A stretch of 61,358 nt of DNA, the filler included, from Candidatus Omnitrophota bacterium (lineage in GTDB: Bacteria; Omnitrophota; Gorgyraeia; JAGLLT01): assembly GCA_023140385.1 (NCBI GenBank). It is 4 parts of 4 records of this genome, joined end to end, with 100 filler letters (N's around TTAATTAATTAA, not from the genome) between each part and the next. Parts side by side here need not be neighbours in the genome. Positions count along the whole stretch, not along the records: positions 14,483 to 38,543 come from JAGLLT010000042.1; 3 more parts are not named here. One strand, 5' to 3'. The notes under the pieces are model-generated. The model made no database searches. It saw nothing but the letters and a program-made list of their open reading frames with translations, and was not told the origin of the DNA. A program made the position numbers and the translations under genes. Position 1 is the first letter of the stretch. Each line of letters begins with the position of its first letter. Below are positions 13,579 to 36,362 of this stretch, piece by piece.

Positions 13579-14382
13579 TTACGCTTGTTTTTTTAAAGCT
13601 GCGGCTTTGTCAGTTTCTTCCCAGCTAAACCCTTCTTCTTCTCTGCCAAAATGGCCATAGGCCGCCGTTTTCTTGTATATTGGGCGCCTCAGGTGAAGCT
13701 CTTCAATTATTCCGCCAGGTGACATATCAAAATTATTCCAGACAAGCTTTTTTATCTGGCTGTCAGAAATTTTACCGGTGCCAAAGGTGTTAATCATCAG
13801 TGATACGGGCTGGACGACCCCTATGGCGTAAGCCAGCTGAATCTCACACTTTTCACACAGTCCGGCCGCTACCACGTTTTTTGCTATATATCTGGCGTAG
13901 TACGACGCGGACCTGTCTACCTTGCTGGGATCTTTGCCGGAGAAAGCGCCGCCGCCATGACTTCCCACACCACCGTAGGTATCAACGATAATCTTTCTTC
14001 CGGTAACACCTGTATCGGCCAATGGCCCGCCAACGGCAAATCTGCCGGTAGGATTAATAAATATCTTTGTCTTGTCGTCCCTTAAATCCGCCGGGATTAT
14101 TTTATCTATTACCAGAGCCTTCAGGTCTTTTCTAATATCTTCTATCTTTGTTCTGGGGCAGTGATGAGCGCTTAACACTACCGCCTCAATCCTTTTGGGC
14201 TTTCCGTTTAAATATTCAACTGTTACCTGGGATTTACCGTCAGGTCTTAAATAACCGACCTTCTTTTCTTTGCGTATCTTACTTAACTGCCGCGTTAACT
14301 TATGAGCCAGCATAATAGGCAGCGGCATCAGCTCTTTAGTCTCATTCGCGGCATAACCAAACATCATTCCCTGGTCACCTGC
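13579..14382 (-). CDS. metK: S-adenosylmethionine synthetase (5' part lost at contig edge)
   Basis: [33 protein letters not shown]. Confidence 0.97.
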
Positions 14383-14482
14383 NNNNNNNNNNNNNNNNNN
14401 NNNNNNNNNNNNNNNNNNNNNNNNNNTTAATTAATTAANNNNNNNNNNNNNNNNNNNNNNNNNNNNNNNNNNNNNNNNNNNN
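14383..14482. other. artificial contig spacer
   Basis: N-run with central TTAATTAATTAA (stops in all frames). Confidence 0.98.
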
Positions 14483-14713
14483 GGATATCTGACTGATGGT
14501 TTTAGCCGGTATTGTGAGAAAAAAGGACTGATAATAGAGCACGTACATACAAGCGGACACGCGACAATAGAAGATTTGCAGGCGTTCGCTAAGGCGTTAA
14601 ATCCCCGGAAGTTAATTCCGATACATACGTTTGAATCGGAAAGATATTCAGATTTATTTGAGAATGTAGAGATTATTAAAGATGAAGAGGCTATAGAGCT
14701 TAAAACGCCATAA
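14483..14713 (+). CDS. C-terminal part of a beta-CASP metallo-beta-lactamase (RNase J-like) nuclease
   Basis: Manual translation GYLTDGF...HVHTSGHAT...NPRKLIPIHT...*; not in ORF track. Confidence 0.85.
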   Translation, partial: GYLTDGFSRYCEKKGLIIEHVHTSGHATIEDLQAFAKALNPRKLIPIHTFESERYSDLFENVEIIKDEEAIELKTP

Positions 14714-14892
14714 ATCCTTTTAGGTTTGACGGTTGATTTTTTGTTTTGGAGCTTATCTTATTTTCAGCAGTAATCACGCGACCCGTAGTTAAAAAGCTCT
14801 TGTGTTTATTGCATAATAGGTATATATTACTCTTCAGAGGTATATTGAGGTAAGTGCTTTTTTCTCCATTTTAAAGGAAAAGGAGAAGGTTT

Positions 14893-16386
14893 GTGGACAA
14901 AAAAACGGAAGGCGTTAGTGTAAGAAGAGAGTCTGATGTTCCGTCTATTTTATCAAAGATACTACATGATAAAAAGATGATAAAAAGGATATTATTTACG
15001 TTAGGTATAGTGATTGTCTATAAATTATTGACATTTATGCCAATCCCGGGCATTGATATTGAAGCTCTGCGCGCGTCGTTTAATAATTCTGACAATATTG
15101 CGAGAATAAACATTTTTAATGCCGGGGAACTGCGAAGAGTATCAATTTGCGCTTTGGGCCTTATGCCGTATTTCTCTTCTTGTATACTAATTATGATATT
15201 AGGCGCTGTTATTCCGTTCTTTAAAAGATGTTATGCCATGGGAGGGCAAAAAGGTAGAGAGAAGATTGTCAAGAGTACCTATTATTTGACTATCGCGTTG
15301 AGTCTCGTGCAAGGCTATTTTATTAGTCAATGGTTAGAGTCAGCTAACTTTGGCGGCCTTAGTATGGTTATTTCGCCGGGATGGGGTTTTAGAATTATAA
15401 CGGTTTTTTCCTTAACGGCAGGGGTCTTCTTGCTATTATGGTTAGCTAGATTGATAAATGATCATGGTATTGGAAATGGTGTAGCCATTTTAGTACTGTT
15501 TGGAATAGTTCCAAAATTTCTTATTATAATTGGCCAATTTGTTCAACGTGATTTAGCCGGTGGTCAGTTATTCTTTTTGTTAGTAACATTTATCGCTTCC
15601 ATAGCGGTTACGTGGCTGATGTCAACATCAACCCAAAAAGTACCTATTATTTACAATAATTCAAATATAAAAAATTCGATCACATTGCGTTTTAGCTGGA
15701 CAGGTAAAGCTCCTATAGGATTCGCGCAGGTAGTAATTTTTTTTCCGGTAACGATAGCGGCTTTCTGCCCTTGGTTAAATAAATTTGCCACACTAATCTC
15801 ACATGGTGGATGGTTGTATACGATATTGTATTCTATCTCGATTTTATTTTTCGCATATTTCTTAATAGCGGTACTTTTTAGGCCGCGAGAAATAAGCGAT
15901 AAAATGAAAAAGCATGGCTGTCAGATTGAAAATGTGGCATTGGGCAGGGAGACAGCAGAATATTTAAATTCTAAGATGAATAGAAATACAATAGTAACAG
16001 CATTATTTTTGATAGCTGTAGGCATATTGCCGAGTATATATAGTAAGACTGTGTGCAGCGTTTCATATCTAACTATTACTTTTATTAGCTATGCAACTCT
16101 TGTAGTAATAGTAGGAATATTTTATGATTTAAAATGCCAGATAGAGTCTTATTTCGCGATGAAGGAGTCTGATAAAGGCGAGTGGGGCGTTGCTTACGTC
16201 GCGCTTGATGAAATCGAAGCAGAAATTAAAAAGGGATTTCTTGAAACCAAGGACATCCCATGTGTCATAGAACCGTTAAGATTTACCTGGGGTATGCCCA
16301 TAAGAACCGCGGTTGATCAGTATAGATTATATGTTCCGAGTAAAAAACAAGAAGAAGCGGTAAAAATATTAGTACAAAATAGCTAA
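14893..16386 (+). CDS. divergent SecY paralog with C-terminal DUF2007-like domain
   Basis: RILFTLG..P.PGID, SICALGLMPY, GIGNG, G..TAEYL SecY motifs; extra ~80-aa tail EIEAEIKKGFLE..DIPC...RLYVP...EEA. Confidence 0.8.
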   Translation: MDKKTEGVSVRRESDVPSILSKILHDKKMIKRILFTLGIVIVYKLLTFMPIPGIDIEALRASFNNSDNIARINIFNAGELRRVSICALGLMPYFSSCILIMILGAVIPFFKRCYAMGGQKGREKIVKSTYYLTIALSLVQGYFISQWLESANFGGLSMVISPGWGFRIITVFSLTAGVFLLLWLARLINDHGIGNGVAILVLFGIVPKFLIIIGQFVQRDLAGGQLFFLLVTFIASIAVTWLMSTSTQKVPIIYNNSNIKNSITLRFSWTGKAPIGFAQVVIFFPVTIAAFCPWLNKFATLISHGGWLYTILYSISILFFAYFLIAVLFRPREISDKMKKHGCQIENVALGRETAEYLNSKMNRNTIVTALFLIAVGILPSIYSKTVCSVSYLTITFISYATLVVIVGIFYDLKCQIESYFAMKESDKGEWGVAYVALDEIEAEIKKGFLETKDIPCVIEPLRFTWGMPIRTAVDQYRLYVPSKKQEEAVKILVQNS

Positions 16387-16405
16387 ATTCAAAAAAAGGT
16401 AACTC

Positions 16406-16609
16406 GTGGACAGAAAAAAATTAGGTAAAAAGATCAAGTTAGCCCGCGTAGAGCTCGACTTAACCCAAACCCAACTTGCTCAAAAAATCAAAGCAAAGCA
16501 GAAAAGTATCTCCCGCTATGAAACAGGAGCAACTTCACCATCCATAAAAACTTTAGTAAAAATCGCAAAGGTGCTCAAAAAATCAGCAGGGCATTTTTTG
16601 GATGAGTGA
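16406..16609 (+). CDS. Xre-family HTH regulator
   Basis: LGKKIKLAR..LTQ.QLA......ISRYETG...PS. Confidence 0.9.
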   Translation: MDRKKLGKKIKLARVELDLTQTQLAQKIKAKQKSISRYETGATSPSIKTLVKIAKVLKKSAGHFLDE

Positions 16610-16713: not shown

Positions 16714-17022
16714 ATGAGCGCGGTAATTGATTTAATAAAAGCGGAGCATGTAGGGGTAAGAGAATTAAGAGATCACTTGTGTGGATTTATGAAAGACAAA
16801 AAACCGGCCATAGTGGTAACCGAAAGAGGGAAGCCGGTAAGGGTAATTGTGCCTTACGCGAAGATGGTTGAATTGCTGGAATTCTTCGATGAAGTTTCAG
16901 ATCCGAATACTATGAGAAATATCCATGAAGGTATAGAGGCAATTAAACGAGGTTCCAAAGGCGCTTCTTTTTCAGGAACTTATAAAAAATATCATTCAGT
17001 GGGTCAAGCGGTAAAAAAATGA
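16714..17022 (+). CDS. Phd/YefM family antitoxin
   Basis: VGVRELRD.L......IVVTERGKPV; overlaps the toxin start. Confidence 0.8.
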   Translation: MSAVIDLIKAEHVGVRELRDHLCGFMKDKKPAIVVTERGKPVRVIVPYAKMVELLEFFDEVSDPNTMRNIHEGIEAIKRGSKGASFSGTYKKYHSVGQAVKK

Positions 17023-17372
17023 ACTACGATATTAGATACCCAACACCAAGGCTGAAAAGATATTTTGACGAATTTCTGCAAAAAAGGATCCATCATAAAA
17101 ATCAGAGGAAAAAAATAGTAGATGAAGTAGGCGCTCTCAGGGGCAATCCTAGGCCATTTCATAAGCCAGAAGGCGATGGTTTGGCTTCCGATAGCCAAAG
17201 CCACAAGAAAGGGTTTACGGAAATCAAACCACCAATACCTGTTTCTTATCATTTAGCGGAATACAGATTAAAAATTGGGGATTATCGGGTTTTGTATAAC
17301 GTAGATGATAAGCAGAAGATCGTCTGGATATTAGATATAAGATTACGCGCGGAGAAAACTTATAGAGGATAG
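17019..17372 (+). CDS. RelE/ParE family toxin
   Basis: L..NPRP, YRLKIGDYRVLYNVDD...V.IL.I..R...Y. Confidence 0.85.
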   Translation: MNYDIRYPTPRLKRYFDEFLQKRIHHKNQRKKIVDEVGALRGNPRPFHKPEGDGLASDSQSHKKGFTEIKPPIPVSYHLAEYRLKIGDYRVLYNVDDKQKIVWILDIRLRAEKTYRG

Positions 17373-20426: not shown

Positions 20427-20455
20427 TTGACAAGGGATGAGTGAAGTGGTATATT
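20427..20455 (+). promoter_or_regulatory. sigma70 promoter of the abiE pair
   Basis: TTGACA, 17 nt, TATATT preceded by an extended-10 TG. Confidence 0.65.
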
Positions 20456-20507
20456 GTATCCATTCATAGTAATTCCATTTGAACTGGAAATAAAAGGAAA
20501 TAAAACA

Positions 20508-21299
20508 ATGAACGCGAAGGGCTATTCTGAGCTTTCAAAAGATGCGGTGTATTTGCTGTCCCGATCAGAATTTGAGAAGCAGAAGGTGATTACGACTAAA
20601 TACGCGGTTAAAGTGTTGGGGAGCTACCGAAAAGCGGCCAGCATGCTTGGCGCGCTTGCTAAAAGAAACCGGCTTATCCAGCTAAGAAGAGGCCGGTATC
20701 TATTAGTGCCTTTAAAGGCCCCTAATCAGCTTTGGATGCCGAATGAGTACGTTGTCGCAGCCTTATGGATGGATGAAGTCCCTTATTATATTGGGTATGT
20801 TTCGATGTATAACTACTGGGGATTTACGGAGCAAATTCCACAATCGGTTACTGTCTTAAACACAATGAAAGAATGGAAACGAAACATCAAAAATATTAAG
20901 TATATAGCTGTTAAAATATCTCCTCGAAAAATGTACGGAATAAAAAAAATAAGAATTGATGAAGAAGACATCTGTATTAGTGACAAAGAACGCACACTTG
21001 TAGATTTTATATTTAAACCAATGGGGTCATGGGAGAATGTTCAGGCGGTTATTAACGGGCAAATCGGCAAGATAGATATTCAAAAATTTATCCGCTATTT
21101 AATAAAATTTCCTGTAGCGGCAGTTCGTAAGCGGGCGGGGCTTATGCTTGAGAGGGCCGGTGTGCCCCAAAAAGACTTAGCTGAACTGAAAAAATCTATC
21201 GGCGCAAAAAACACATATATTAATTTTAATCCGTTTGTTAAGTCCCGAAAAGGGAAAGTGAATCAATGCTGGAAAGTTATCATCAATGGACAAGAATAA
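20508..21299 (+). CDS. type IV TA antitoxin AbiEi
   Basis: wHTH with L.QLRRGRY, YYIGY.S...YWGFTEQIP, DKERTLVD. Confidence 0.85.
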   Translation: MNAKGYSELSKDAVYLLSRSEFEKQKVITTKYAVKVLGSYRKAASMLGALAKRNRLIQLRRGRYLLVPLKAPNQLWMPNEYVVAALWMDEVPYYIGYVSMYNYWGFTEQIPQSVTVLNTMKEWKRNIKNIKYIAVKISPRKMYGIKKIRIDEEDICISDKERTLVDFIFKPMGSWENVQAVINGQIGKIDIQKFIRYLIKFPVAAVRKRAGLMLERAGVPQKDLAELKKSIGAKNTYINFNPFVKSRKGKVNQCWKVIINGQE

Positions 21300-22149
21300 A
21301 CTAAAGGATATTATCAATTTTATAGCTGATAAGCAGGGATTTCGCCCCGCGATTATAGAGAAGGATTATCATTTGACCAGAATCCTTAACGCGGTTAATG
21401 AACATTTAAGCCGTGATATAATTTTTAAGGGCGGGACATTATTAAATAAAGCTTATTTGGATTATCATCGATTAAGTGAAGATCTGGATTTTTCATATAG
21501 AAGCGATGCTGATGTTTCCGCGCGCGCCAAGAGATCATATGCCATAACATCAATCAGAAAGAAGATGCCTTCTTTTTTATCTTTTTTGGGGCTTACGAGT
21601 GAAAATCCCCAAGGGGAGGGATTTAATAATTCAACGCAGTATCTTTTTACTCTTCAATTTCAGTCAATTATTATGAATCGCGAGGAGGGTATAAAATTTG
21701 AAATATCATTGCGCCAGCCTTCTTTTTTGCCTCCTGTAACCGTACGGGTTAAACATTTCTATCAAGACCCGTTCAGCGGAGAGGATTTGTTCGCGCAGGG
21801 GAGTATATTAGCACTGTCGTTGGAAGAAGCCGTGGCGGAAAAACTGAAAGCCTCCATATCCCGTTTGACACCCGCGATTAGAGATTATTACGATTTGGGG
21901 CACTTTATTAAAATAGGATTTGATTTCGCGCGGCCGGATTTACTAAAATTGGTTAATAAAAAATTGAAACTTGATGGATACAAAGGAGATTATTCTCATA
22001 ATTTAGGCTTGTCCGACCAGGCAATCGAGGAACTAAAAAGAATCAGCGAAAGCGATCTTACGCCAATGATCAGAGCTGATGAGAAGTTTGATCTAGATAC
22101 GGTTTTTGCGCATTTTAATAAACTATTTGACCGGAATAAGGTGGAATAA
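21286..22149 (+). CDS. type IV TA toxin AbiEii (nucleotidyltransferase)
   Basis: IEKDY, FKGGT.L...Y....RLSEDLDF, EKL, RDYYD. Confidence 0.9.
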   Translation: MDKNKLKDIINFIADKQGFRPAIIEKDYHLTRILNAVNEHLSRDIIFKGGTLLNKAYLDYHRLSEDLDFSYRSDADVSARAKRSYAITSIRKKMPSFLSFLGLTSENPQGEGFNNSTQYLFTLQFQSIIMNREEGIKFEISLRQPSFLPPVTVRVKHFYQDPFSGEDLFAQGSILALSLEEAVAEKLKASISRLTPAIRDYYDLGHFIKIGFDFARPDLLKLVNKKLKLDGYKGDYSHNLGLSDQAIEELKRISESDLTPMIRADEKFDLDTVFAHFNKLFDRNKVE

Positions 22150-22301
22150 AATTTGTATTAATTGTGGGAAGATTTTTTGGATGTGTAGCAATAGAGGGTT
22201 GAAGCAGTGACATTGCGCAAGTTCAAAAAGTAAAATTATGGGGGAAGTGGGAAGAAAGAGAAATAGGTATTGTGTGGGCAAGTCCAGTGCGCCCCGATTT
22301 T

Positions 22302-22409
22302 TACAGATTAAGAATTGGGGATTATCGGGTTTTGTATAATGTAGATGATAAGCAGAAAATTGTCTGGATATTAGATATAAGAATATGCGCGGAGAAAACT
22401 TATAGAGGA
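22302..22409 (+). pseudogene. duplicated 3' fragment of the relE-like toxin gene
   Basis: 108-bp near-identical copy (6 mismatches by eye) of 17262-17369. Confidence 0.9.
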
Positions 22410-22429
22410 GAAAAGTATAAATAAAAGGT

Positions 22430-22457
22430 GTCTGAGCTAACCCGGGTTAGCTCAGAC
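22430..22457. repeat. perfect 28-bp palindrome (REP-like)
   Basis: GTCTGAGCTAACCC|GGGTTAGCTCAGAC. Confidence 0.9.
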
Positions 22458-22617
22458 TATCCCCTTTTACTATATACTATGTTCGAGGCGAAACCTCGAA
22501 CAAAAAGAAAGTAGGATAAATGAGAAAAACGGTCGCTGATCCTATTTTTCTATGTTTAGAAGTGATATTATAATTGTGGTATGTAAATTTAACACATGTA
22601 GTTAAGGATAGAGTAAT

Positions 22618-23475
22618 ATGAAAACGAAAGTAGAGAAAAAGAGAGCAAAAAGCAAGAACGCGAAAACAAAAAAAGCATCTAAGCGACTTACGGCTGTAGA
22701 TATACAAAATATGAGAATTTTAGCTAAAATGCTGGGAGAATTGGTTCCTTATTCCGGTAGGGGTAATTTCAATCTACAGAATATCGCAAAAAGATTTAAT
22801 TTAACGAAATGCTTTCCAGCAAAACATCATAACAAAAAAGAAACATTCTCATTTTTTATTCGAGATGTACACAAAAGACATCCCAGAATGATGAAAAAAA
22901 TAGTTCGAGAAATTTTCCCTAAGGCTATTGAACGAAGATATGAGCAAGGTAATCCCATACTTCTTGAAGAAGCAACTGTTTTAAGCGAGCAATTATTTAA
23001 AATAGGAGTTGATCTTAAAAAAGAAATAAGAGGATTAAGATTTCCCAAAGAAAGACCTAAGGTTGTTCCGCCACCTTATGATATTCAAGAGATATTAAAA
23101 AAAATTAAATTGCATCCCATTTTAATGCCGGAATGTCAAAAATTATTTCTAGATGGTCATATAAATGAATCAGTTCGTAAGGCGCTAGAAAAATATGAAG
23201 TATATGTGCAGAGAAAATCATCTTTGAAAATTATAGGAAAAAACTTGATGGGAAAGGCTTTTTCATTAAGAGGACAAACTATCAAGTTGAATGCGTTGTC
23301 TACTGAATCAGAGAAAAATGAACAAGAAGGATTTATGTATATTTCTATGGGTGTTATGCAATGGTGGCGCAATACGTTAAGTCATGGTGATGAGAAACAA
23401 ATCTCACATCACGAGGCGCTAGGGAGATTATTTCTAATAAGTAACCTATTGCATCGTTTGGAAAATTGTATATAA
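22618..23475 (+). CDS. TIGR02391 (Ymh)-domain protein
   Basis: LHP...C..LF.DGH..ESV..A, G..LM..AFS, SE.NEQEGF, G.....RN..SH. Confidence 0.75.
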   Translation: MKTKVEKKRAKSKNAKTKKASKRLTAVDIQNMRILAKMLGELVPYSGRGNFNLQNIAKRFNLTKCFPAKHHNKKETFSFFIRDVHKRHPRMMKKIVREIFPKAIERRYEQGNPILLEEATVLSEQLFKIGVDLKKEIRGLRFPKERPKVVPPPYDIQEILKKIKLHPILMPECQKLFLDGHINESVRKALEKYEVYVQRKSSLKIIGKNLMGKAFSLRGQTIKLNALSTESEKNEQEGFMYISMGVMQWWRNTLSHGDEKQISHHEALGRLFLISNLLHRLENCI

Positions 23476-23512
23476 GTGAAGGAATCATTTAAGGAGAGGG
23501 TAGGGTAAACCT

Positions 23513-25672
23513 ATGACAATAGAAAAAAAATTAAATCAAGAGCTTAGAAACATGCAAATAAAAGATACTCAGACATGGTTTAAAAAATTAATCCAAAAGG
23601 ACCAAATTGTGGGGGATCTTTACTCTATAAATTATCAGAGTGCTAAAGTGCAAATACATGATAATGAACGAAAAAAAGTAGGAGGAATTCCAAGCTTAAG
23701 TTTTCTTATCGCTACACGAGTTGATCCAGATAATTCTGATATTGACTTCAAGGTAGAGGATTCTTCATTCATTTTACTCAGAGTAATTGATGCAGCACAA
23801 TTGCCAAATAGTTCCGAAGCGGAAAGAATAAGGGTTGAAACGGCTCAGCGAGTTAGCGGGGAAACCGATAGGCACTGGGATGGCGAAGGAATAATGGATG
23901 CGAAAACACGTGTTTATTTAGGTTATGCAGGAGTACAATGTAGAATTATTGGTACATTTTATCTAGATGCAATGACTGAAGAAAAAAATGCGCAGTTATA
24001 TTTAAAGTTTGGGAGTGATATCTCTAATTTCTATCCGAATAGAGGATTGAAAGTTTATAAGCCAAATGCCAAAGCGCTGGAGTTAATTGTAAATTATACA
24101 GACCCTAGTAATAGACAAGAACATCTCGAAAAATATAGGACCTCTGAGAGTGTGAAACTTGGTTTTATCCGGTATGCATCAACTAATAGGAAATTTCAAA
24201 ATATAGATGATGTTCCAGTCTATATATATCCTGCAGATTTGCTTTCACAAAAGTCCGCATTGTTTGGAATGACTAGAACAGGAAAATCAAATACGACTAA
24301 AATTATTGCAAAATCTGTTTATGAATTGCGGTATCCTCCTAAATCAAAAGATAAGGCATTAAGAATCGGCCAAATCATTTTCGACCCAAACGGGGAGTAT
24401 GCTAATGAGAATGTTCAGGATGCCGATGGAACGAATAATCCTAATGCCTTAAAGAATATTTGGAACATTAGTGGAGAGAAAAATAAATCAGATGAAGTTG
24501 TTACTTATGGTATAACATCTCATCCTAACGATCCTGAACGAAACCTAATGCTTATTAATTTCTACTTAGAGGAAAATTTGCAAATAGGTAAAGAAATTAT
24601 TGATAATTCTTTTAAAAAGGGTGAATCTAAATTTATCGAGAATTTTCAACAAGTTGAGTTTATAGCTCCCGATGTAACGGACAGGAGCGCAATGACTCGT
24701 TACAATAGAAGGGTTCTTGCGTATCGGGCATTATTGGCTAAAGCAGAGTTTTCTGTGCCAACGAATTTAGCCATCAGTACAACAGGACTTTTTAGTAATG
24801 AATTAATTAATGGGCGTCCAAATGCGAAAAATGCAAGCACACAGTTTAATGGAATGATAAATGTCCAAAGTGATCTCAACAATGCCGATAGATTTGCTGC
24901 AGCTGCAAGAATTTTTCAAACAGCAAACCCTTCCTTGCATAGTTTGGCTACTGCTTTTACAACGTTATTTGATTATATAAAGACAGCAGAATACAAAGCA
25001 TTTGAAAGGTGGTACGTTGATGACAGGCCAAGCTCTTCTGGTGATAATTGGGCGGATGAAAATTTCGTGAAAATTCTTGAAATGATTTGGAGAGGTAATG
25101 GTCCTAAGCAAATTGCTAAGGTAATAGAGAATCATTCTCCTGCTAGAAGCTCTGATTATGCGGAGGATATTTATAATGATCTGAAAAATGGGAAATTAGT
25201 AATTATTGATCAATCTAGCGGTGAGCCTGAAATAAACCAAGCCACCGCAGAACGGGTTATGTGGCACATATTTAGAGAAAATCAAAAGCTGTTTAGAGAA
25301 GGGCAAACGCCAACAGAAATTATAATTTATATTGAGGAAGCGCACAATCTTTTACCAAGTGGTAGCGATCTTGATTTGAAAAATGTTTGGGTCAGAACTG
25401 CAAAAGAGGGGGCGAAGTATTGTCTTGGGATGGTTTATGCTACTCAGGAAGTTAGTAGCATTCAGAAGAACATTTTGAAAAATACAGCCAATTGGTTCAT
25501 TTCGCATCTTAATAATACGGATGAGACAAAGGAACTTTGTAAATATTACGATTTTGCTGATTTTGAACTTTCAATAAGGCGTGCGCAAGACAAAGGATTT
25601 TTGAGAATAAAAACATTGAGCAATCCATTTGTTATTCCTGTACAAGTGGATAAATTTGATGTGATCGCATAA
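23513..25672 (+). CDS. HerA-like (DUF87) ATPase
   Basis: N-terminal HAS-barrel-like region, Walker A GMTRTGKS, IFDPNGEY, Walker B IYIEEAHN, AKEGAKY, ATQ. Confidence 0.88.
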   Translation: MTIEKKLNQELRNMQIKDTQTWFKKLIQKDQIVGDLYSINYQSAKVQIHDNERKKVGGIPSLSFLIATRVDPDNSDIDFKVEDSSFILLRVIDAAQLPNSSEAERIRVETAQRVSGETDRHWDGEGIMDAKTRVYLGYAGVQCRIIGTFYLDAMTEEKNAQLYLKFGSDISNFYPNRGLKVYKPNAKALELIVNYTDPSNRQEHLEKYRTSESVKLGFIRYASTNRKFQNIDDVPVYIYPADLLSQKSALFGMTRTGKSNTTKIIAKSVYELRYPPKSKDKALRIGQIIFDPNGEYANENVQDADGTNNPNALKNIWNISGEKNKSDEVVTYGITSHPNDPERNLMLINFYLEENLQIGKEIIDNSFKKGESKFIENFQQVEFIAPDVTDRSAMTRYNRRVLAYRALLAKAEFSVPTNLAISTTGLFSNELINGRPNAKNASTQFNGMINVQSDLNNADRFAAAARIFQTANPSLHSLATAFTTLFDYIKTAEYKAFERWYVDDRPSSSGDNWADENFVKILEMIWRGNGPKQIAKVIENHSPARSSDYAEDIYNDLKNGKLVIIDQSSGEPEINQATAERVMWHIFRENQKLFREGQTPTEIIIYIEEAHNLLPSGSDLDLKNVWVRTAKEGAKYCLGMVYATQEVSSIQKNILKNTANWFISHLNNTDETKELCKYYDFADFELSIRRAQDKGFLRIKTLSNPFVIPVQVDKFDVIA

Positions 25673-25684
25673 AGAGAGGGATAT

Positions 25685-27070
25685 ATGGGATTTGAAAACG
25701 AATTTGCCAGTTATGAGCCACTCCGTAGAATTTTGGACAGCACAAAGGTTAAGTCACTTCAAAATAGGCTGAAAATAAGAAAAAAAGACGAACAGGAAAG
25801 TGGTCAAGAAGAATTTAAAAACAACATCATTAGCAAGGCAGACATGAAGAGTGATTTTATTCCTGATTACGTTATTGCTATTGATGGAAGTTATCAGCCG
25901 GCGAAAGCTGAAAATGGATTTCCTGGGGCAGAATTTGGTTACATTACTATTTCTGCTGTTTTGATAGTTGAAAAATCTGTCCGAGAATTTGCCAGACAAG
26001 AATTTATTGATCCTAAAAAGTTTAGGGAAACCGAAAAGGCATCAACAATTGATACTGTGATTCCTGGTTGCAATGTCATCATTGATAGTGAGAAATCGGC
26101 TAAAACATCAATGCGCAGAATGCTATTTGAGGAACTTCGAAATACAAGAGCGTTTGAAGAAGGTGAAACTTTACTGGAAACCTATGAACACCTTTTTAGA
26201 ATTAAACTCGAAAAGAATAAAGGCATCGGAGGCAGAGAAAAACCAAGAAGTCCTATTGATGGAGTTGATCAAGAAATGACTTATGATTTAGGGCAATACG
26301 TTTGTCCGCATAGTGGTGAACCATTGTACTCAACAGACGCAATGCGTTTGCACGAGTTAATGAACTCGGGTGGAACAAATGGCGAAATGTATGGTCAAGT
26401 AATGCAAATGTTTGAGAAGCTCTGGCTTGTTCATATTTTAAGGTCTTTTGAGAAAAAGGATTGGTTAAACTTGTTAGATCGAGTTGTTTTTGTACTTGAC
26501 GGTCCATTGGCTTGCTTCAGTACTTGGTCTTGGATTAATAAATCAATAATATTGGAACTAGCTCGAATAAATGAACTTCAAAAAAAACAAACAGGAAAAG
26601 ACCTTTTAATCTTTGGTATAGAAAAATCAGGAATTTTTTATAATCATTTTGAGGAACTTGATACAAAAATCGATGGCACAACAGATCGTTTCCCAAACCA
26701 ATCAGCTTTTTTGCTTTCTGACGGGTACATTAAGGAGAATATTATTTTCTCTGAAAGTAATAAGCTATACGGTCAAGATACCTATTTTGGAAGAAAGCTA
26801 TTTTATAAAACAAAGATAGGATATAGAATTGTTCCTGTTCTTGCCTTTTTCAATGAGCATCAACAAAATTTAAAAGAGGTAAGGCTAAACCAATTTCCTC
26901 GATTAGCGGATTTAATGAATGTGTTGGATGAATTAGCTTCTAGCCGATATTCTAATTCAGTTTCACCACTTGTTTCCGCCCATGCAGAGGCGGCAATACC
27001 TTTGAATCTTGGCAAGCGGATATTTGATGATATCGCCCGAGAAATTAGAGCTAAATCTTATAAAGAATAA
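25685..27070 (+). CDS. NurA-like nuclease
   Basis: IAIDGS, LDGPL, GIEKSG, C-terminal PL..AH..A; directly follows HerA. Confidence 0.78.
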   Translation: MGFENEFASYEPLRRILDSTKVKSLQNRLKIRKKDEQESGQEEFKNNIISKADMKSDFIPDYVIAIDGSYQPAKAENGFPGAEFGYITISAVLIVEKSVREFARQEFIDPKKFRETEKASTIDTVIPGCNVIIDSEKSAKTSMRRMLFEELRNTRAFEEGETLLETYEHLFRIKLEKNKGIGGREKPRSPIDGVDQEMTYDLGQYVCPHSGEPLYSTDAMRLHELMNSGGTNGEMYGQVMQMFEKLWLVHILRSFEKKDWLNLLDRVVFVLDGPLACFSTWSWINKSIILELARINELQKKQTGKDLLIFGIEKSGIFYNHFEELDTKIDGTTDRFPNQSAFLLSDGYIKENIIFSESNKLYGQDTYFGRKLFYKTKIGYRIVPVLAFFNEHQQNLKEVRLNQFPRLADLMNVLDELASSRYSNSVSPLVSAHAEAAIPLNLGKRIFDDIAREIRAKSYKE

Positions 27071-28188
27071 TGATAAAAACAGAAGACATAGTAAAAGGTT
27101 ATAAAATAGCTGAGTCCCGTTGGGCAAGATTTGGACCTTATTATGCTATGTTTCCTCTTGATTTTGCCTTTGAAGTAGTTGAGAGATATTCCAAAGAAGG
27201 CGACTTCATTATCGATCCCTTTGCTGGTAGATGCTCTAGTATTTATGCGGGTGGTGTTTTAGGCAGACATAGTTTGGGCATCGAAATTAACCCTGTTGGC
27301 TGGCTTTATGGGACAGTCAAGCTTGATCCTGCAAATAAAGAAGAAGTAACTGATCGCTTGTTAGAAATCTACTCTAAGCAAAATTACTACAAGCGCGCAA
27401 TTGAAAGAATGCCATTGTTTTATCGAATGTGCTACAGTGATGAAGTTTTAAAATTTCTCTTATCAGCCCGCAGTCATCTAAATTGGCAAAAGAATGATGT
27501 TGACGCTACATTAATGTCTATTCTCTTGGTTTATTTACATGGCAAGTTAGGAGAAGGGTTATCTAATCAAATGAAAATGAGTAAGGCTATGGGGATGAAA
27601 TATTCAGTTGAATGGTGGAAAAAACACAAATTGACCAAACCGCCTGAAATTAATCCTATTGAATTTGTAATGAAGAAATTGAATTGGCGTTATAAAAAAG
27701 GTAAACCGGAGGTATTTGATAGTAGAGTAATTTTCGGTGATAGCACTATTGAATTGGAAAAAATTGTACATAAAGCACAAAAAAGCGGAATTAAATTTTC
27801 TCTTCTTTTTACTTCGCCCCCATATTGCTCTGTAACGGATTACTATGCTGATCAATGGTTGCGTCTTTGGTTGCTTGGTGGATCTGAGGTGCCGAAGTCA
27901 AAACAAGAGAAGCATAAAGGGCGCTTTGTTTCAAAGGATGATTACTGTAAACTTTTGGATACTGTCTTTGGTAATTGTGCTGTTTTAATGGCCGAAAAGA
28001 GCACAATCTATGTGCGGACTGATAAACGAAAATTTACATTTAACTTGACACTAGAAATTTTAAAAAAGTATTTCTCAAGACATAAAATAAAAATAATTGA
28101 GAGACTTTTTTTAAAGAAAACACAAACTGAGATGCATGGGAACAAGTCAACAGAAACAGGTGAGATAGACATAATTATGACAAAATAA
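27070..28188 (+). CDS. site-specific DNA methyltransferase (N4-C/N6-A type)
   Basis: YYAMFP, DPFAGR SAM motif, GIEINP, catalytic TSPPY. Confidence 0.85.
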   Translation: MIKTEDIVKGYKIAESRWARFGPYYAMFPLDFAFEVVERYSKEGDFIIDPFAGRCSSIYAGGVLGRHSLGIEINPVGWLYGTVKLDPANKEEVTDRLLEIYSKQNYYKRAIERMPLFYRMCYSDEVLKFLLSARSHLNWQKNDVDATLMSILLVYLHGKLGEGLSNQMKMSKAMGMKYSVEWWKKHKLTKPPEINPIEFVMKKLNWRYKKGKPEVFDSRVIFGDSTIELEKIVHKAQKSGIKFSLLFTSPPYCSVTDYYADQWLRLWLLGGSEVPKSKQEKHKGRFVSKDDYCKLLDTVFGNCAVLMAEKSTIYVRTDKRKFTFNLTLEILKKYFSRHKIKIIERLFLKKTQTEMHGNKSTETGEIDIIMTK

Positions 28189-28354
28189 AGTAACTGGTAG
28201 TTAATTTACCCGTTAAACCCGAGATATCTCGTTGTGTTCCTTGATTACGTAGGTATATATTACTACTTAAAAGAATATGAGTGAATGACCTTTCATATGT
28301 CTAAATTATATCTCAAAAAGTATATTGTGTTAAGTATTTTTTTGGAGAACTGAA

Positions 28355-28558
28355 ATGGACAGAAAGAAGTTAAGTAAGAAGATTAAAGTAGCTCGCGTAG
28401 AGCTTGATTTAATCCAAACCCAACTTGCTCAAAAAATTAAGGCAAAGCAGAAAAGTATCTCGCGCTATAAAACAGGAGCAACTTCACCATCCATAAAAAC
28501 TTGAGTTAAAATCACCAATGTTCTCAAAAAACCAGCAGGGTATTTTTTGGAAGAGTGA
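28355..28558 (+). pseudogene. degenerate copy of the Xre HTH gene
   Basis: Colinear with 16406-16609; premature TGA at 28502-28504. Confidence 0.9.
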
Positions 28559-28716
28559 AAATAGGATGTGTCCCTAATTTTCACAATGGCAGGATTATTT
28601 TCATTTACAGCAAACTCTTTACGTACACGGCGCAATGCACGTAAAAATTAAGTGGTTGGAAATAAAAGAGTTATGAAAAATTTACATGCGTTTTGCTGTA
28701 TATAGGAGATATTTAT

Positions 28717-28884
28717 ATGTTAACACCTAAAATGAAATTATTAATAAACCGGCTTTGGGATAACTTCTGGAGCGGTGGCATTGCCAATCCATTAACCGCA
28801 ATGGAGCAGATATCGTATCTTTTATTTATGCGCCGGTTAGATGAGATAGATAGCAAACTAAAGAAAGATGCTGAGGGAATATAA
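28717..28884 (+). pseudogene. truncated type I RM HsdM N-terminus
   Basis: I..LWD.FWSGGIANPL..MEQISYLLFMRRLDE then stop after ~55 aa. Confidence 0.85.
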
Positions 28885-28886
28885 TA

Positions 28887-29600
28887 TTGAAGAAAGAAAC
28901 AAAACAAAAGAAGGTTTATGAAAAGGCAATAAACAATTGGCCAAAGGAAGATAGGCCGAGAGAAAAATTACTAAGAAATGGCGAACATACTCTTAGTAAT
29001 ACTGAGTTACTGGCTATTTTACTGCGAACGGGAACAAAAGGTCAAAGTGCTATAGATTTAGCAAGAAAAGTATTACAAAAATTCAAAACCTTTCGTAATT
29101 TATCGCATACAGATTTGGCCCAGTGGAAAGAATTTAAAGGATTGGGCCCCGCCAAAATAGCCCAGATAAAAGCAGCTATTGAAATTGGAAGAAGATTTAG
29201 GGAAGATGAATTAAAAGAAAAGAAGATCAAGGTCAAATCTTCAAAAGATATTGTAGATTTTTTAATGCCGAGAATGAGAGACTTAAAATTTGAGGTATTT
29301 AAAGCTGTTTTATTAGATTCTCAAAATAAAATAATTGATATTGTTGATATTGATCAAGGTACAGTAAATCAAGCAAATCCTATCATCAGAGAACTATTCC
29401 AAAAAGCCTTGCAGTATTTTGCGACCGCTTTAATCTGCGTTCATAATCATCCATCAGGAAACATAACGCCAAGTAGAGAAGATAAAGATTTTACCAAGAA
29501 TCTTTGTGAGGCAGGCAAAATTATGCAAGTTAAAGTGTTGGATCATGTTATAATTGGGGATAATAAGTATTATAGTTTTGCGGATGAAGAGGCGTTATAG
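28887..29600 (+). CDS. radC: RadC (JAB domain) protein
   Basis: DRPREKL, ELLAILLRTG, HhH, HNHPSG..PSRED, LDHVIIG. Confidence 0.95.
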   Translation: MKKETKQKKVYEKAINNWPKEDRPREKLLRNGEHTLSNTELLAILLRTGTKGQSAIDLARKVLQKFKTFRNLSHTDLAQWKEFKGLGPAKIAQIKAAIEIGRRFREDELKEKKIKVKSSKDIVDFLMPRMRDLKFEVFKAVLLDSQNKIIDIVDIDQGTVNQANPIIRELFQKALQYFATALICVHNHPSGNITPSREDKDFTKNLCEAGKIMQVKVLDHVIIGDNKYYSFADEEAL

Positions 29601-29629
29601 TATATAATATTTTTTAAGGAGAAGCAGTT

Positions 29630-31714
29630 ATGTCAAAAAAAGAAAGCAGAATTACATTAATCTCTATATTAAAGGATTCGCAATATAATCTTTCTATATT
29701 TACACCTGAAGAAATAACAATTCTTGAAGAAAAAATTATCGATAAAAAAGGTAAACCTTATGTGGAGTGTATCGTTAGAGGAAAGGAAATTCAGCTTAAG
29801 CCCGAGGAGGTTGTTCGCCAGCTTTATACCGCAAAACTAATAAACCAATATGGTTACTCTAAAAAGAGAATTAGGTTTGAACATCCAGTTCAATTTGGTA
29901 GGCAGACAAAATCTTCCGATATTGTGCTTTTCGATAAAGAGCGTCCGACCGTAGAATATATAATAGTTGAAGTTAAGAAACCAAAACTAAAAGATGGCAA
30001 AGAACAACTTAAGAGCTACTGTAATGCTACCGGCGCGCCTATAGCTATATGGACAAATGGGGGGCAGATTTCCCATTACAATCGAAAGGACCCGAATTAT
30101 TTTGAAGATATAACCGATATCCCCAGTGCCAATCAAACGCTTGCCGATATCCTTAAAGAACGTTTTACGCTCAAAGACCTTATTATTAAAGATAAAATTC
30201 CTTCAGAAGGAAAATCCCTTAAGACAATTATCCAGGATATGGAAGATGAAGTCCTTGCTAATGCTGGCGTTGATGTGTTTGAAGAAGTTTTTAAGCTTAT
30301 ATTTACAAAATTGTACGATGAACATAAAAGTCAGCAAGATAGAGTGATCATCAATTATTTTCTAAAAGACAAAAATTATCCTATGATTGCTGAGCCCAAA
30401 GCTAAATATGGGAAGGTGAGAGAAAATTCGTTTGATGAGGTTAAGAAAGCGGTTCAAGGGGTAGATGATTCATCGTTTAGGGTGATGGAATTCAGGAACA
30501 CGGGACAGTCAGAAGGAGAATTGAAAAAGAAAATCCAAAAGCTATTTGATGAAGCAAAAAAGAAATGGACTGGTGTGTTTCTCGATGAGAGTAAAATTGA
30601 TCTTTCGCCATCCCATCTTTCTATATGTATATCAGGACTTCAGGATGTAAAACTTTTTAATTCTAATTTGCAAGTTATTGACGAAGCGTTTGAATACCTT
30701 GTTAGTAAGTCTTCAAAGGGAGAGAAGGGTCAATATTTTACGCCTCGGCATGTAATTGATATGTGCGTTAAAATGCTTAATCCACAAAAAGGCGAGTATA
30801 TGATTGATAGTGCCTCTGGTTCGTGCGGGTTTACTGTTCATACAATCTTTTACTTAACAGGGCATCTTTTTGAAAATAAGGAGATATCTGCTGAAGAAAA
30901 AGAAGATGTACTGAAAGTATTCGGAATTGACTTTGATGAAAAAGTTGTGCGTGTGGCAAGGACGCTTAACCTAATCGCGGGAGACGGTGAAACAAATGTG
31001 TTACATCTGAATACTCTTGATTATGACCGCTGGAACGAAACAGTAAAAAATCCAAATTGGATTGAAACTTATGGCAGGGGATATAAACGGTTAAACAAAT
31101 TAAAAAAGGATAAGGATGGCAATAAAGATTTTTTGTTTGACGTATTAATGGCTAATCCGCCTTTTGCTGGGGATATCAAAGAATCCCGTATAATTCATAA
31201 ATACGAGTTAGGTTATAACAACAAAAATAAACCAAAGTCAAAAGTTGGTAGAGATATTCTTTTTATTGAGCGCAATCTTGACTTTATCAAGCCTGGTGGG
31301 CGTATGGCGATTGTGTTGCCACAAGGTAGGTTTAATAACACTTCTGATAAAGATATTAGGGAATACATTGCCGATAAAGCAAGAATACTTGCAGTTGTGG
31401 GATTGCACGGCAACACTTTTAAACCGCATACGGGCACAAAAACAAGTGTTTTGTTTGTTCAAAAATGGGATGATAAATTATGCCCTAAAAAAGAAGATTA
31501 CCCAATATTTTTTGGAGTATCAGATAAGGCTGGTAAGGATAATTCTGGTGATTATATTTATGTTAAAAATGGTGATGGGAAGCCAAAGCTAGATAAATAT
31601 GGACATTTGGTTGTTGATCATGATTTGCATAATCATAATGGCGAACTTACTGGCGGTATTGCTGAGGCGTTTATTGACTGGGCGAAAAAAGAGAAATTAA
31701 ATTTTTGGAAATAA
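29630..31714 (+). CDS. fused restriction endonuclease (HsdR_N-like) + N6-adenine methyltransferase
   Basis: PEEVVRQ, DIV....IIVEVK nuclease; GQYFTPR, DSASGSCG, ANPPF. Confidence 0.88.
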   Translation: MSKKESRITLISILKDSQYNLSIFTPEEITILEEKIIDKKGKPYVECIVRGKEIQLKPEEVVRQLYTAKLINQYGYSKKRIRFEHPVQFGRQTKSSDIVLFDKERPTVEYIIVEVKKPKLKDGKEQLKSYCNATGAPIAIWTNGGQISHYNRKDPNYFEDITDIPSANQTLADILKERFTLKDLIIKDKIPSEGKSLKTIIQDMEDEVLANAGVDVFEEVFKLIFTKLYDEHKSQQDRVIINYFLKDKNYPMIAEPKAKYGKVRENSFDEVKKAVQGVDDSSFRVMEFRNTGQSEGELKKKIQKLFDEAKKKWTGVFLDESKIDLSPSHLSICISGLQDVKLFNSNLQVIDEAFEYLVSKSSKGEKGQYFTPRHVIDMCVKMLNPQKGEYMIDSASGSCGFTVHTIFYLTGHLFENKEISAEEKEDVLKVFGIDFDEKVVRVARTLNLIAGDGETNVLHLNTLDYDRWNETVKNPNWIETYGRGYKRLNKLKKDKDGNKDFLFDVLMANPPFAGDIKESRIIHKYELGYNNKNKPKSKVGRDILFIERNLDFIKPGGRMAIVLPQGRFNNTSDKDIREYIADKARILAVVGLHGNTFKPHTGTKTSVLFVQKWDDKLCPKKEDYPIFFGVSDKAGKDNSGDYIYVKNGDGKPKLDKYGHLVVDHDLHNHNGELTGGIAEAFIDWAKKEKLNFWK

Positions 31715-31717
31715 ATC

Positions 31718-33286
31718 ATGGAAAAGGAAAAATCCAATAAAATTTCGGTGTATCTCATAAAGACAGGATTCTTTCCTGCCGACGTCTTGAAAAAGGGTAA
31801 TTATAGCCAGTTGCCTTTAAGTAATGAGAGCATTTTTTATTTTGACAAGTCACATAGTTATAAACCATCTTGGATTAAAGGATTTTTTGGAAACAAGCTA
31901 GATGATATAGAACTATTTAACCAAAGCTCTAGGGGAGTTTGTTTTATAAAAGTAGTCATTGGATCAGAAGAAAGATTTTTTGCCATACCCTTTGGATATG
32001 GTCATTCAATGATTAAAAAATATTATTGCGTAGATGATTTTGGCCTAAAAACCGTTCTGAATCTTGTTGACAGAAATAGCATCCGAAAAATAGGAAAAAG
32101 GACTTTGTCCTCAGAGCCAAAAAATACGATTGAGCAACTCAGCAAAATTGGAAATATATCTGACTTCGGTATAGATATTGAACAAGATCTAATAGAGGAA
32201 ATAACCGGAAAGCCAAATGATCTTTATTTTGGAAATAATCTTGTTACAGGAAAAGTTGCTTTTACAGCATCAGTGAAAGCCAATATTTCTAATGCAGAAG
32301 AATTTTTAAAGAAGTGTTCTGAATATTACAAAAAAGAATACTACAAAAAAAACTTTGCTTTTATTGATCAAGTTAAAGCGATTAAAGATACAAAAGAATG
32401 GGATGAAAAATTAATTGAAAAGTTGAAAAACGATAAGGATGAAAATATAGATGTATGGATGGCTATACCGGAAATCATTGAATGGGAGGATGTTGCCGGT
32501 TTTTCATATTTAGGTAAGAAAGAAAATCTTGTTGACGATATAACCATTGAAGATTTTAAAAAATCATTATCAAAAAAACAAAGTGATAGTTTAGATCTTG
32601 ATTTTCTTAAAAAGAATAAAGTTTATTGTTTTAGAAGTTCTGCCGATGAAGAATACGACAGCTGGTCATATTTTAAATGTTTTTATTGTGAAATAACAAA
32701 GGATGATAGAAAAATAATACTGACAAACGGCAAGTGGTATGAAATTGCAAAAGATTTTGTTGAAGAAGTTGAAAATAATTACAAAAACACTCTCAAGCAT
32801 TCTTCCAAAATTGCACTTGTTGAATGTGAAGAAAAGCAACATGAAGACAAGTACAACGAAAATTTAGCAAAATCGGTAAAAGGTATTCTGATGGACAGAA
32901 AAAATATTACTTATGGTGGCGGTTCAAGTTCTGTGGAGTTCTGTGATGTGTACGATACTGAAAATAAGGCATTTATACACGTAAAAAATTATTATGGCTC
33001 AAGCGCTCTAAGTCATTTATTCGCACAAGGGCGAGTTTCTGGACAGTTGTTTCTTTCTGACCAAAAATTTAGGGAAAAGGTTAAAGAGAAAGAATCATCA
33101 TTACCATTTGACCCAGTAGTAGATCCAAGTCCTGGTGATTATAAAATAATATTCGGTATTATTAGTGAATCAGAAAATAATTTAAACCTTCCTTTTTTTA
33201 GCAAGGTGAATTTTAAAAATGAACGGAATTTATTAAACACTTTCGGTTTTAAAGACGTTTATTTGACTAAAATCAAACGGAAATAA
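31718..33286 (+). CDS. TIGR04141/DUF6119 family protein, putative nuclease
   Basis: FA..FGYG, DFGLK..LN, NGKWYEI, ED.YN, VEFCD....IHVK....SS.LSHLFAQG. Confidence 0.75.
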   Translation: MEKEKSNKISVYLIKTGFFPADVLKKGNYSQLPLSNESIFYFDKSHSYKPSWIKGFFGNKLDDIELFNQSSRGVCFIKVVIGSEERFFAIPFGYGHSMIKKYYCVDDFGLKTVLNLVDRNSIRKIGKRTLSSEPKNTIEQLSKIGNISDFGIDIEQDLIEEITGKPNDLYFGNNLVTGKVAFTASVKANISNAEEFLKKCSEYYKKEYYKKNFAFIDQVKAIKDTKEWDEKLIEKLKNDKDENIDVWMAIPEIIEWEDVAGFSYLGKKENLVDDITIEDFKKSLSKKQSDSLDLDFLKKNKVYCFRSSADEEYDSWSYFKCFYCEITKDDRKIILTNGKWYEIAKDFVEEVENNYKNTLKHSSKIALVECEEKQHEDKYNENLAKSVKGILMDRKNITYGGGSSSVEFCDVYDTENKAFIHVKNYYGSSALSHLFAQGRVSGQLFLSDQKFREKVKEKESSLPFDPVVDPSPGDYKIIFGIISESENNLNLPFFSKVNFKNERNLLNTFGFKDVYLTKIKRK

Positions 33287-33288
33287 CT

Positions 33289-34695: not shown

Positions 34696-34701
34696 TACGA
34701 T

Positions 34702-34893
34702 ATGACTGATTTTAAGAAAGAATGGATTGAAAAGGCAAATATAGATTATTTCTCAGAGTTTATGACTTTGTGGTTGGGTTTTAATTCTTAGTATTGGTCG
34801 CATTATTCAGAATTAAGAAAAAGAGATAGAGTTTTTATTGATAAATTGAAAACAGACTTTACAGGTAGGAATCAAATTTATGTTTTAGAGTAA
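34702..34893 (+). pseudogene. remnant of a probable HEPN-type gene
   Basis: MTDFKKEWIEKANIDYFSEFMTLWLGFNS*Y...; in-frame TAG at 34789; breaks off at TAGGGGAC. Confidence 0.55.
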
Positions 34894-35109
34894 TAGGGGA
34901 CGTTGATGCAATCATGCATTTTTCTTCTTTCAGCCTTTTTTAAAAAAATCGGCAGAAAAGGCGAAATCTAATGAACATAAAATCCGGGGATATATTATTG
35001 TTTAAGGGTGAGAGGTTTATTAAGAAGATTTAAGGAATTACCGGAAAGATAGTTAAGTGTTCTGTTCCTGTGATTTACACCCGTCAACTGGATAGAGGGG
35101 AAAATATTT

Positions 35110-36162: not shown

Positions 36163-36182
36163 TTACTAATGTAGCTTCGGCA

Positions 36183-36343: not shown

Positions 36344-36362
36344 TCATTAAGGAGATTATAGA

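Follow-up and report, generated by a model that had tools for sequence, protein, structure and literature searches.

A divergent second SecY with a DUF2007-like tail and a remodelled cytosolic face in Omnitrophota bacteria

SecY is found in all cells, and few of its parts are better conserved than the cytosolic C4 and C5 loops. PMC4602035 identifies C4 and C5 as the chief sites for FtsY and the ribosome, C4 extending into the exit tunnel, and reports that residue 357 of C5 cross-links to FtsY, SecA and uL23. Bacteria with a second SecY have also been described: PMC12445088 treats SecA2 and SecY2 as paralogs dedicated to the translocation of specific proteins. Here we analyse a stretch of 61,358 nucleotides (hereafter the window) from the genome of an uncultured cold-seep Omnitrophota bacterium (GCA_023140385.1, referred to as G000; 1.50 Mb, 57 contigs, 92.7% complete), which encodes a 497-residue SecY paralog carrying a DUF2007-like domain at its C-terminus (SecY-DUF2007). 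No published description of SecY-DUF2007, or of a SecY paralog in Omnitrophota, was found in a literature search that missed most subscription journals. On balance we lean towards the view that this protein is a lineage-specific second Omnitrophota SecY, a SecYE-type channel with a rebuilt cytosolic docking face that is engaged or gated through its tail.

The paralog matches the Pfam SecY profile PF00344 at E 8.9e-59 and 199.8 bits (cut-off 32.2), with residues 84-412 covering profile positions 1-304 of 306, and it also matches 16 distinct solved SecY sequences (E 2.8e-55 to 8.8e-41), being approximately 30-34% identical to canonical SecYs. With the housekeeping equivalog model TIGR00967 it reaches 207.1 bits, under the 253.6 cut-off, and with the SecY2 models 107.2 bits (NF009082, cut-off 353) and 100 bits (TIGR02920, cut-off 249.6). 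The AlphaFold2 (AF2) model of the whole protein predicts a SecY-like helix bundle, with a predicted local distance difference test score (pLDDT) of 77.1 and a predicted template modelling score (pTM) of 0.78. The canonical SecY of the same genome (443 aa, 370.1 bits) is encoded on contig C13 in an L18-S5-L15-SecY-Adk-Map row; the paralog lies outside the spc ribosomal-protein operon and is not the sole SecY copy. A canonical SecY (364-389 bits) coexists with the paralog (95-201 bits) in all ten paralog-bearing genomes checked. SecA and SecE of G000 are located on contigs C10 and C28, neither of them on the paralog contig C37. The original prediction, made from the DNA alone, had described a divergent SecY outside any ribosomal-protein operon with no secE or secA nearby, and had looked to a canonical secY elsewhere in the genome; all of this is confirmed. 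The gene and its parts, in window positions, are the following.

14881..14885, plus strand: Shine-Dalgarno-like AGGAG, read from the sequence, 7 nt before the GTG start.
14893..16386, plus strand: SecY paralog with C-terminal DUF2007-like domain, 497 aa, GTG start (PF00344; AF2 model).
14977..16164, plus strand: SecY core, residues 29-424, with 10 predicted transmembrane (TM) helices (phmmer alignment to E. coli SecY 5abb_A; AF2 helices).
15646..15705, plus strand: shortened C4 loop, about residues 252-271 (alignment to E. coli and canonical SecYs).
15916..15945, plus strand: remodelled C5 loop tip GCQIENVALG, residues 342-351 (alignment to E. coli and canonical SecYs).
16183..16383, plus strand: C-terminal cytoplasmic DUF2007-like domain, residues 431-497 (AF2 secondary structure; hhalign; structural matches).
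16270..16326, plus strand: near-invariant loop EPLRFTWGMPIRTAVDQYR, residues 460-478, between tail strands 2 and 3 (alignment of 19 family members).

Residue equivalences were counted along a phmmer alignment with E. coli SecY (chain 5abb_A). At the C5 tip the paralog reads GCQIENVALG, against GGFIPGVRPG in the genome's own canonical SecY, and the paralog has E, N, A and L at the positions of E. coli P354, G355, R357 and P358. Its C4 is 8 residues shorter than the canonical loop and lacks the basic residues, E. coli R255 and R256 falling in the deletion. Both features had been pointed out beforehand, as a C5 loop CQIENVALG replacing the canonical motif and a short C4 lacking the arginine cluster, and the alignments to E. 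coli and canonical SecY bear them out. This remodelling of the two loops holds across the family. In 44 paralog rows, a selection from about 90 available, C4 has a median length of 19 residues (range 16-27) and a median net charge of +1, versus a length of 27 in 27 of 27 canonical Omnitrophota rows and 8 of 8 outgroup rows and a canonical charge of +3 to +5, or +4 to +5 in the Omnitrophota rows alone. The canonical C5 tip has the consensus GGFvPGiRPG at ≥80%; in the paralog rows, identity at the loop tip is below 50% at every position.

After TM10, the basic C-terminal tail of canonical SecY is replaced by a domain of about 67-70 residues with a predicted beta-alpha-beta-beta-alpha order. The AF2 model of the isolated domain has a pLDDT of 76.6, with dips at the loop between strands 2 and 3. 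The tail is the best-conserved part of the paralog, and EPLRFTWGMPIRTAVDQYR, the loop, is its most conserved stretch: E460, P461, R463, T465, W466, G467, I470, T472, D475, Y477 and R478 are invariant in 19 members whose overall identity is 32-69%. The strand 2-strand 3 loop (FTWGMPIRT) is invariant in this subfamily and variable in ordinary DUF2007 proteins. The Pfam DUF2007 profile PF09413 matches the tail weakly (E 0.018, 15.6-15.9 bits, below the 25.7 cut-off), and in a scan of ten of the family's tails three match at E <= 1. The best-scoring family member, P0151, reaches 24.6 bits and is still under the cut-off. Comparison of profiles gives a stronger relationship: hhalign aligned the tail profile with a DUF2007 protein alignment at 99.3% and E 1.8e-20, a match favoured by the fact that the DUF2007 rows were picked from weak matches of the tail profile, and five of those rows pass the Pfam cut-off by themselves. 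The weak end of the tail-profile search holds 12 small proteins, 10 of which are Pfam-positive DUF2007. The structural evidence points the same way, as the tail model resembles the solved DUF2007 structure 2HFV (Z 7.2), and the ESM Atlas model of the paralog aligns to DUF2007 clusters with TM-scores of 0.78-0.85, the top structural row meeting the Atlas naming bar. We accordingly assign the tail to DUF2007, as a divergent member whose invariant loop is specific to the subfamily. The extra DUF2007-like domain claimed in the original prediction is thus right in identity, by profile and fold evidence, and has to be corrected in size (not the roughly 80 residues proposed), the Pfam match itself being only weak.

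The SecE side was approached through relatives and through modelling. Two metagenome proteins, P0190 (583 aa) and P0186 (556 aa), are single chains in which a SecE-like TM segment comes after SecY-DUF2007, at the C-terminus; PF00584 matches P0190 with 36.3 bits (SecE part at residues 530-583) and does not match P0186, and the C5 loops of both are also non-canonical. One SecA and one SecE were found in each of the five paralog genomes searched. When the paralog was modelled in complex with the SecE of its own genome, the interface score (ipSAE) was 0.66 versus 0.00 for the best control, a mark that 116 of 157 solved complexes and 2 of 215 mismatched pairs attain. Three runs of this model share at least 90% of their contacts, with a partner pLDDT of 75, and the predicted interface comprises TM1, TM5, TM6 and TM10.

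The distribution of the family was examined with a profile built from 10 tails. Against 1.84 billion representatives it retrieved 92 proteins at E <= 0.001; 84 of these were Pfam-scanned, and the other 8 were already known to carry PF00344. Among the 77 strongest matches (E <= 1e-10) there are 72 SecY proteins (64 scanned plus the 8 known; about 72 clusters), all with the domain at or near the C-terminus, and the remaining five are proteins of 82-171 aa lacking a Pfam match. Within the phylum the tail occurs in 15 of 401 genomes, 12 times inside SecY frames of 477-543 aa and three times as small stand-alone open reading frames (ORFs) only; by genus, 12 of 282 were matched. One stand-alone ORF of 76 aa (L046:1501-1731, genome G324) is located between putative archease-like and RtcB-like genes, named from their translations by eye. 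Scanning 185,579 species representatives for the motif yielded 20 solid loci, all of them from metagenome-assembled genomes (MAGs) labelled Omnitrophota/Omnitrophica or, loosely, "PVC group", "Planctomycetia", "Deltaproteobacteria" or "bacterium". One genome holds two paralog copies, L070 and L078, which belong to different subclades.

Trees were quick LG+G4 reconstructions with Shimodaira-Hasegawa-like approximate likelihood ratio test (SH-aLRT) support only. The main tree comprised 76 rows and 448 SecY core columns, and left out the tail columns and the long-branch sequences par_P0177, par_P0192 and par_x_L072. On the core columns the 41 paralogs form one clade (SH-aLRT 100), and together with the canonical SecYs of Omnitrophota they separate from the 8 outgroups (SH-aLRT 99); a tree that includes the tail columns gives the same picture. 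This places the origin of the paralog within or next to the SecY clade of Omnitrophota. Its branches are approximately 5-fold longer, with a median distance from the common node of 2.2 substitutions/site for paralogs and 0.4 for canonical SecYs. Reading frames are intact in all the paralog loci used, and the ratio of nonsynonymous to synonymous substitution rates (dN/dS) in seven pairs is 0.09-0.24 overall and 0.04-0.29 for the tail; the overall values imply that the gene is maintained by selection.

In the model we lean towards, the paralog most likely still works as a SecYE-type protein-conducting channel in the inner membrane, together with the cell's single SecE. Its cytosolic face has been rebuilt at three places: C4 shortened and mostly de-charged, the C5 tip with the arginine that in E. 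coli contacts SecA, FtsY and uL23 gone, and the basic tail swapped for a DUF2007-type domain, whose nearly invariant loop between strands 2 and 3 may by analogy occupy the place of the T-loop in PII-like proteins. Because both loops are remodelled and the basic tail is replaced, standard engagement by the ribosome, FtsY and SecA has probably been lost; the tail domain, via a partner or a ligand, would more likely be what engages or gates the channel, which in turn may export or insert a subset of substrates. Export-related genes adjoin the paralog in some lineages. Of the 23 distinct paralog loci compared, three (L052 of G083, L053 of G081 and L066 of a Kappaea frigidicola MAG) share the row SecDF-RecJ-paralog-433-aa protein-GspD-like secretin, with SecDF-RecJ upstream and the secretin downstream of the paralog; the 433-aa protein has no Pfam match, and L066 encodes a full-length secretin (479 aa). 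At L070, a signal peptidase I gene (Peptidase_S26, L070:4842-5696) ends 15 nt before the paralog start. A bolder version of this model, which we regard as speculative and rather unlikely, would make the protein a third kind of bacterial SecY paralog, after the Gram-positive SecY2 and the plastid SCY2: the universal docking surface for ribosome, FtsY and SecA would be abandoned, and a metabolite or a dedicated adaptor, acting by way of the fused PII-like/DUF2007 sensor, would open or feed the channel, allowing separately controlled export of special cargo in ultra-small, possibly predatory Omnitrophota.

Several observations weigh against the translocon model. The loss of ribosome, SecA and FtsY binding, and with it the uncoupling that the original prediction had envisaged, is something we infer from sequence. 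A repurposed translocon with a different cytosolic interface is a fair reading of that prediction's evidence, the divergent second SecY, the family-wide loop remodelling and the added domain all standing on observation, and the dedicated export channel also named there may be right. The pore presents a second difficulty. We take the E. coli pore-ring residues to be I82, I86, I187, I191, I278 and I408, which align with L90, F94, V197, V201, G276 and V405 of the paralog, so that five of the six presumed ring positions are hydrophobic and the one equivalent to I278, a position presumably associated with prl, is glycine here and G, A, V, E, D, T or W across the family. The plug region is shortened as well, with pLDDT <50 at residues 66-78. 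A glycine at position 278 together with an altered and poorly modelled plug means that the pore may behave differently from that of a normal translocon. The SecE complex model may owe its pass to the likeness of the paralog to solved SecYE structures, and likeness is not proof. No substrate, motor or adaptor was found for the paralog, and a comparison of 178 neighbour ORFs at 21 loci (L053 and L066 left out) by all-against-all BLAST revealed no neighbour family recurring across paralog subclades, the recurrent families being confined to one vertically related subclade; a conserved operon partner was rejected on these grounds. Finally, only 12 of 401 genomes carry the family, and its tree differs from the canonical one, G000 and G083 being sisters for canonical SecY and not for the paralog. 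The discordance suggests either old subfamilies that were later lost in places or movement of the gene between members of the phylum, and in combination with the rarity it implies a role that is dispensable and possibly niche.

Four other explanations were considered and are taken in order of weight: a sensor-gated non-protein conduit, a channel for giant proteins with SecA domains, a defence pore and a decaying duplicate. The first, which we judge improbable, has the protein passing ions, peptides or small molecules under the control of a ligand, or acting as a regulator that titrates SecE or the canonical translocon, with DUF2007 as the sensor. The loss of all three canonical docking elements would suit it, as would the shortened plug and a ring position 278 that varies and is acidic in some members. 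It also gains from the tail itself, since PF09413 is named "putative prokaryotic signal transducing protein" in Pfam and the predicted fold resembles PII-like and ACT-type small sensor domains (Z 5-7). PII/GlnB-like proteins have a trimeric beta-alpha-beta-beta-alpha-beta core and a T-loop that binds nucleotide or 2-oxoglutarate. PII-like and CutA chains match the tail model only at Z 5.0-5.4, and the tail lacks the fourth strand. Nevertheless, DUF2007 has no known ligand in the literature searched, the TM core, the lateral-gate helices and hydrophobic residues at five of the six presumed ring positions are kept under purifying selection, and signal peptidase I and SecDF adjoin the paralog in some lineages.

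The second explanation is a dedicated channel for giant Omnitrophota surface proteins that bring their own divergent SecA domains, which a rebuilt docking face would fit. A preprint (10.1101/2023.11.21.568195) states that giant genes are common in Omnitrophota and that in the giant proteins divergent SecA DEAD and preprotein-binding domains are present but the scaffold and wing are missing; it proposes self-export. A SecA_DEAD match of 98.7 bits inside a 5521-aa open frame was seen in G088 (G088:C6:5048-5710), and this frame looks like one of the giant proteins of that preprint. However, G088 is the only one of the five paralog genomes searched with a second SecA_DEAD match above the cut-off, and no such match lies next to the paralog: G000 and G027 show the normal SecA only, and G047 and G083 have extra SecA_DEAD matches that are all sub-threshold. 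This absence is weak evidence, as giant genes are often badly assembled. In addition, the preprint has giant genes as common in the phylum, whereas the paralog was found in 12 of 401 genomes. With no co-occurrence in four of five paralog genomes, the link to giant-protein SecA domains was set aside, and we consider this explanation quite unlikely.

The third explanation, put forward in the original prediction as an abortive-infection pore or sensor, is a SecY-derived channel opened by a cytoplasmic sensor on phage infection and depolarising the cell. It bears directly on the surroundings of the gene in the window. The window joins at least four contigs end to end, with N spacers at 14383-14482, 38544-38643 and 47431-47530, and the single contig that carries the paralog (C37) spans 14483-38543 only; MetK and the other genes before 14383 are therefore not its neighbours. 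The MetK ORF (13579-14367, minus strand) runs into a contig end and for that reason has no N-terminal domain. The immediate neighbours on contig C37 are as had been claimed, the end of an RMMBL/beta-CASP gene upstream and an Xre gene followed by a Phd/ParE pair downstream.

14483..14713, plus strand: 3' end (76 codons plus stop) of an RMMBL/beta-CASP-type metallo-hydrolase gene (PF07521, 33.2 bits vs 21.6 cut-off), truncated by the contig start at 14483; a neighbour, outside the SecY paralog unit.
16406..16609, plus strand: Xre-type helix-turn-helix (HTH) gene, 20 nt 3' of the SecY paralog (PF01381, E 3.3e-15); the Phd/ParE pair lies beyond it.

Neither the promoter scan nor the terminator scan rose above shuffled sequence: a promoter-like site at 14789-14817 is at chance level (12 sites vs 9.3 ± 3.5 in shuffles), and between the paralog and the Xre gene there is no plus-strand terminator-like site. 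No RNA run was found among the five sequencing runs containing this DNA, all five being cold-seep DNA and four of them possibly the source of the present sequence. The Xre gene stands beside the paralog in no other locus examined, and a linkage between the two is not supported. The C-terminal part of the ParE-like toxin (17019-17372), …IGDYRVLYNVDDKQKIVWILDIR…, is near-exactly repeated in a 50-aa ORF (22272-22424) 5 kb downstream, which resembles a relic left by duplication of the toxin gene. Further along contig C37 the paralog is at the edge of a defence-rich stretch (window 20454-37496) made up as follows.

20454-22149: AbiEi/AbiEii.
22618-23475: Hypoth_Ymh/PD-Lambda-3_B-like protein.
23513-27070: HerA-NurA.
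27070-28188: N6/N4 methylase.
28887-29600: RadC.
29630-34695: type I-like methylase with HSDR_N, DUF6119 and type I specificity subunit.
35110-36162: RhuM/PDC-S05.
36363-37496: PLD/DrmC-like nuclease.

This position at the edge of the stretch in G000 favours a defence pore, as do toxin-antitoxin (TA) or defence-type neighbours at five of the 23 loci (the window, L054, L055, L063 and L067) and a glycine at the pore ring with an altered plug, which could make the pore leaky. The comparison of neighbourhoods argues otherwise. The other 18 loci have no TA or defence neighbours, and a defence partner recurs nowhere. Eight of the 23 share a vertically inherited housekeeping synteny, the common convergent arrangement KdsB-PRTase-(UPF0047)-D-Ala-D-Ala carboxypeptidase (DacA-like), where PRTase is a phosphoribosyltransferase; other loci lie between Asd and LeuB, beside biotin and fatty-acid genes, or beside response regulators. 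The PADLOC-DB 2.0 models returned 0 families for the paralog, its motif was not found in the viral contigs scanned, and plasmid matches were ordinary canonical secY with <32% identity. The SecE fusions, moreover, indicate a translocon-type assembly. On the PADLOC result, the housekeeping neighbourhoods, the viral motif scan and the plasmid matches, the defence pore was rejected, and we now regard it as very unlikely. The defence-island setting proposed for the gene is real in the sense that the rest of contig C37 is defence-rich, and it is specific to this genome; the abortive-infection reading built upon it is not supported, homologs being found mostly in housekeeping contexts without defence enrichment. 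By all appearances SecY-DUF2007 is a hitherto undescribed alternative translocon and not a device against phages. Lastly, the long branches (median 2.2 vs 0.4 substitutions/site) and patchy distribution could suggest a decaying, functionless duplicate, which is hardly credible given intact frames in all loci used, dN/dS values of 0.09-0.24 that already contradict it, and a tail loop invariant across members as low as 32% identical overall.

As an alternative translocon, SecY-DUF2007 would be a natural experiment: under purifying selection it has discarded both loops, it carries a conserved domain at the same face, and some members have SecE in cis. It bears on how a translocon may be engaged without its canonical partners. 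Compared with SecY of the canonical SecYEG, the paralog shares the predicted fold and 10-TM core, about 30-34% identity, hydrophobic residues at 5/6 presumed ring positions, the predicted SecE interface and the clade grouping. It differs in scoring under the TIGR00967 cut-off, in lying outside the ribosomal-protein operon, in C4, C5 and tail, in its approximately 5-fold longer branches and in being a second copy in 10/10 genomes.

The resemblance to SecY2 of the SecA2-SecY2 system is one of arrangement, a divergent second SecY that coexists with a housekeeping copy and presumably serves special substrates. In contrast, the Omnitrophota paralog stays far from the SecY2 models (100 and 107 bits vs cut-offs of 249.6 and 353), has no dedicated SecA2 (one full SecA in 5/5 genomes), and has no conserved accessory genes beside it, although no search aimed at Asp1-5 was made. 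The SecY2 system is Gram-positive, whereas the Omnitrophota host is diderm, as LptF/G in the window and secretins in relatives indicate. A fused cytosolic domain is a further difference, SecY2 having none to our knowledge.

For the tail, the best structural matches of the model are domain 1 of the type III secretion system (T3SS) ring proteins PrgK/EscJ/MxiJ, at Z 9.1-8.1 and root-mean-square deviation (rmsd) 1.3-1.6 Å, where Z 8-9 is the tool's background for small folds (4W4M, Z 9.1 and rmsd 1.3 Å over 58 residues; 1YJ7, Z 8.8; 6RWX, Z 8.3). Foldseek of the tail against the PDB gave nothing at E <= 0.001, PrgK/EscJ-type E-values being 0.03 or worse. Identity to these domains is 14-24%, and theirs are periplasmic and ring-building whereas the paralog tail is cytoplasmic; the likeness is one of fold only. 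The closer relative is DUF2007 itself, which shares the predicted beta-alpha-beta-beta-alpha fold (hhalign 99.3%, 2HFV Z 7.2, Atlas TM-scores 0.78-0.85). Zinc ribbons are the commonest companions of stand-alone DUF2007 in the Atlas clusters, and a relative of the paralog, P0128 (614 aa), has about three N-terminal zinc-ribbon repeats before its SecY core. The paralog tail differs from ordinary DUF2007 in remaining below the Pfam cut-off, in its invariant strand 2-3 loop and in being fused to a membrane channel; with this fusion DUF2007, a widespread domain without a known role, gains a first defined structural context, at the cytosolic mouth of a predicted protein channel.

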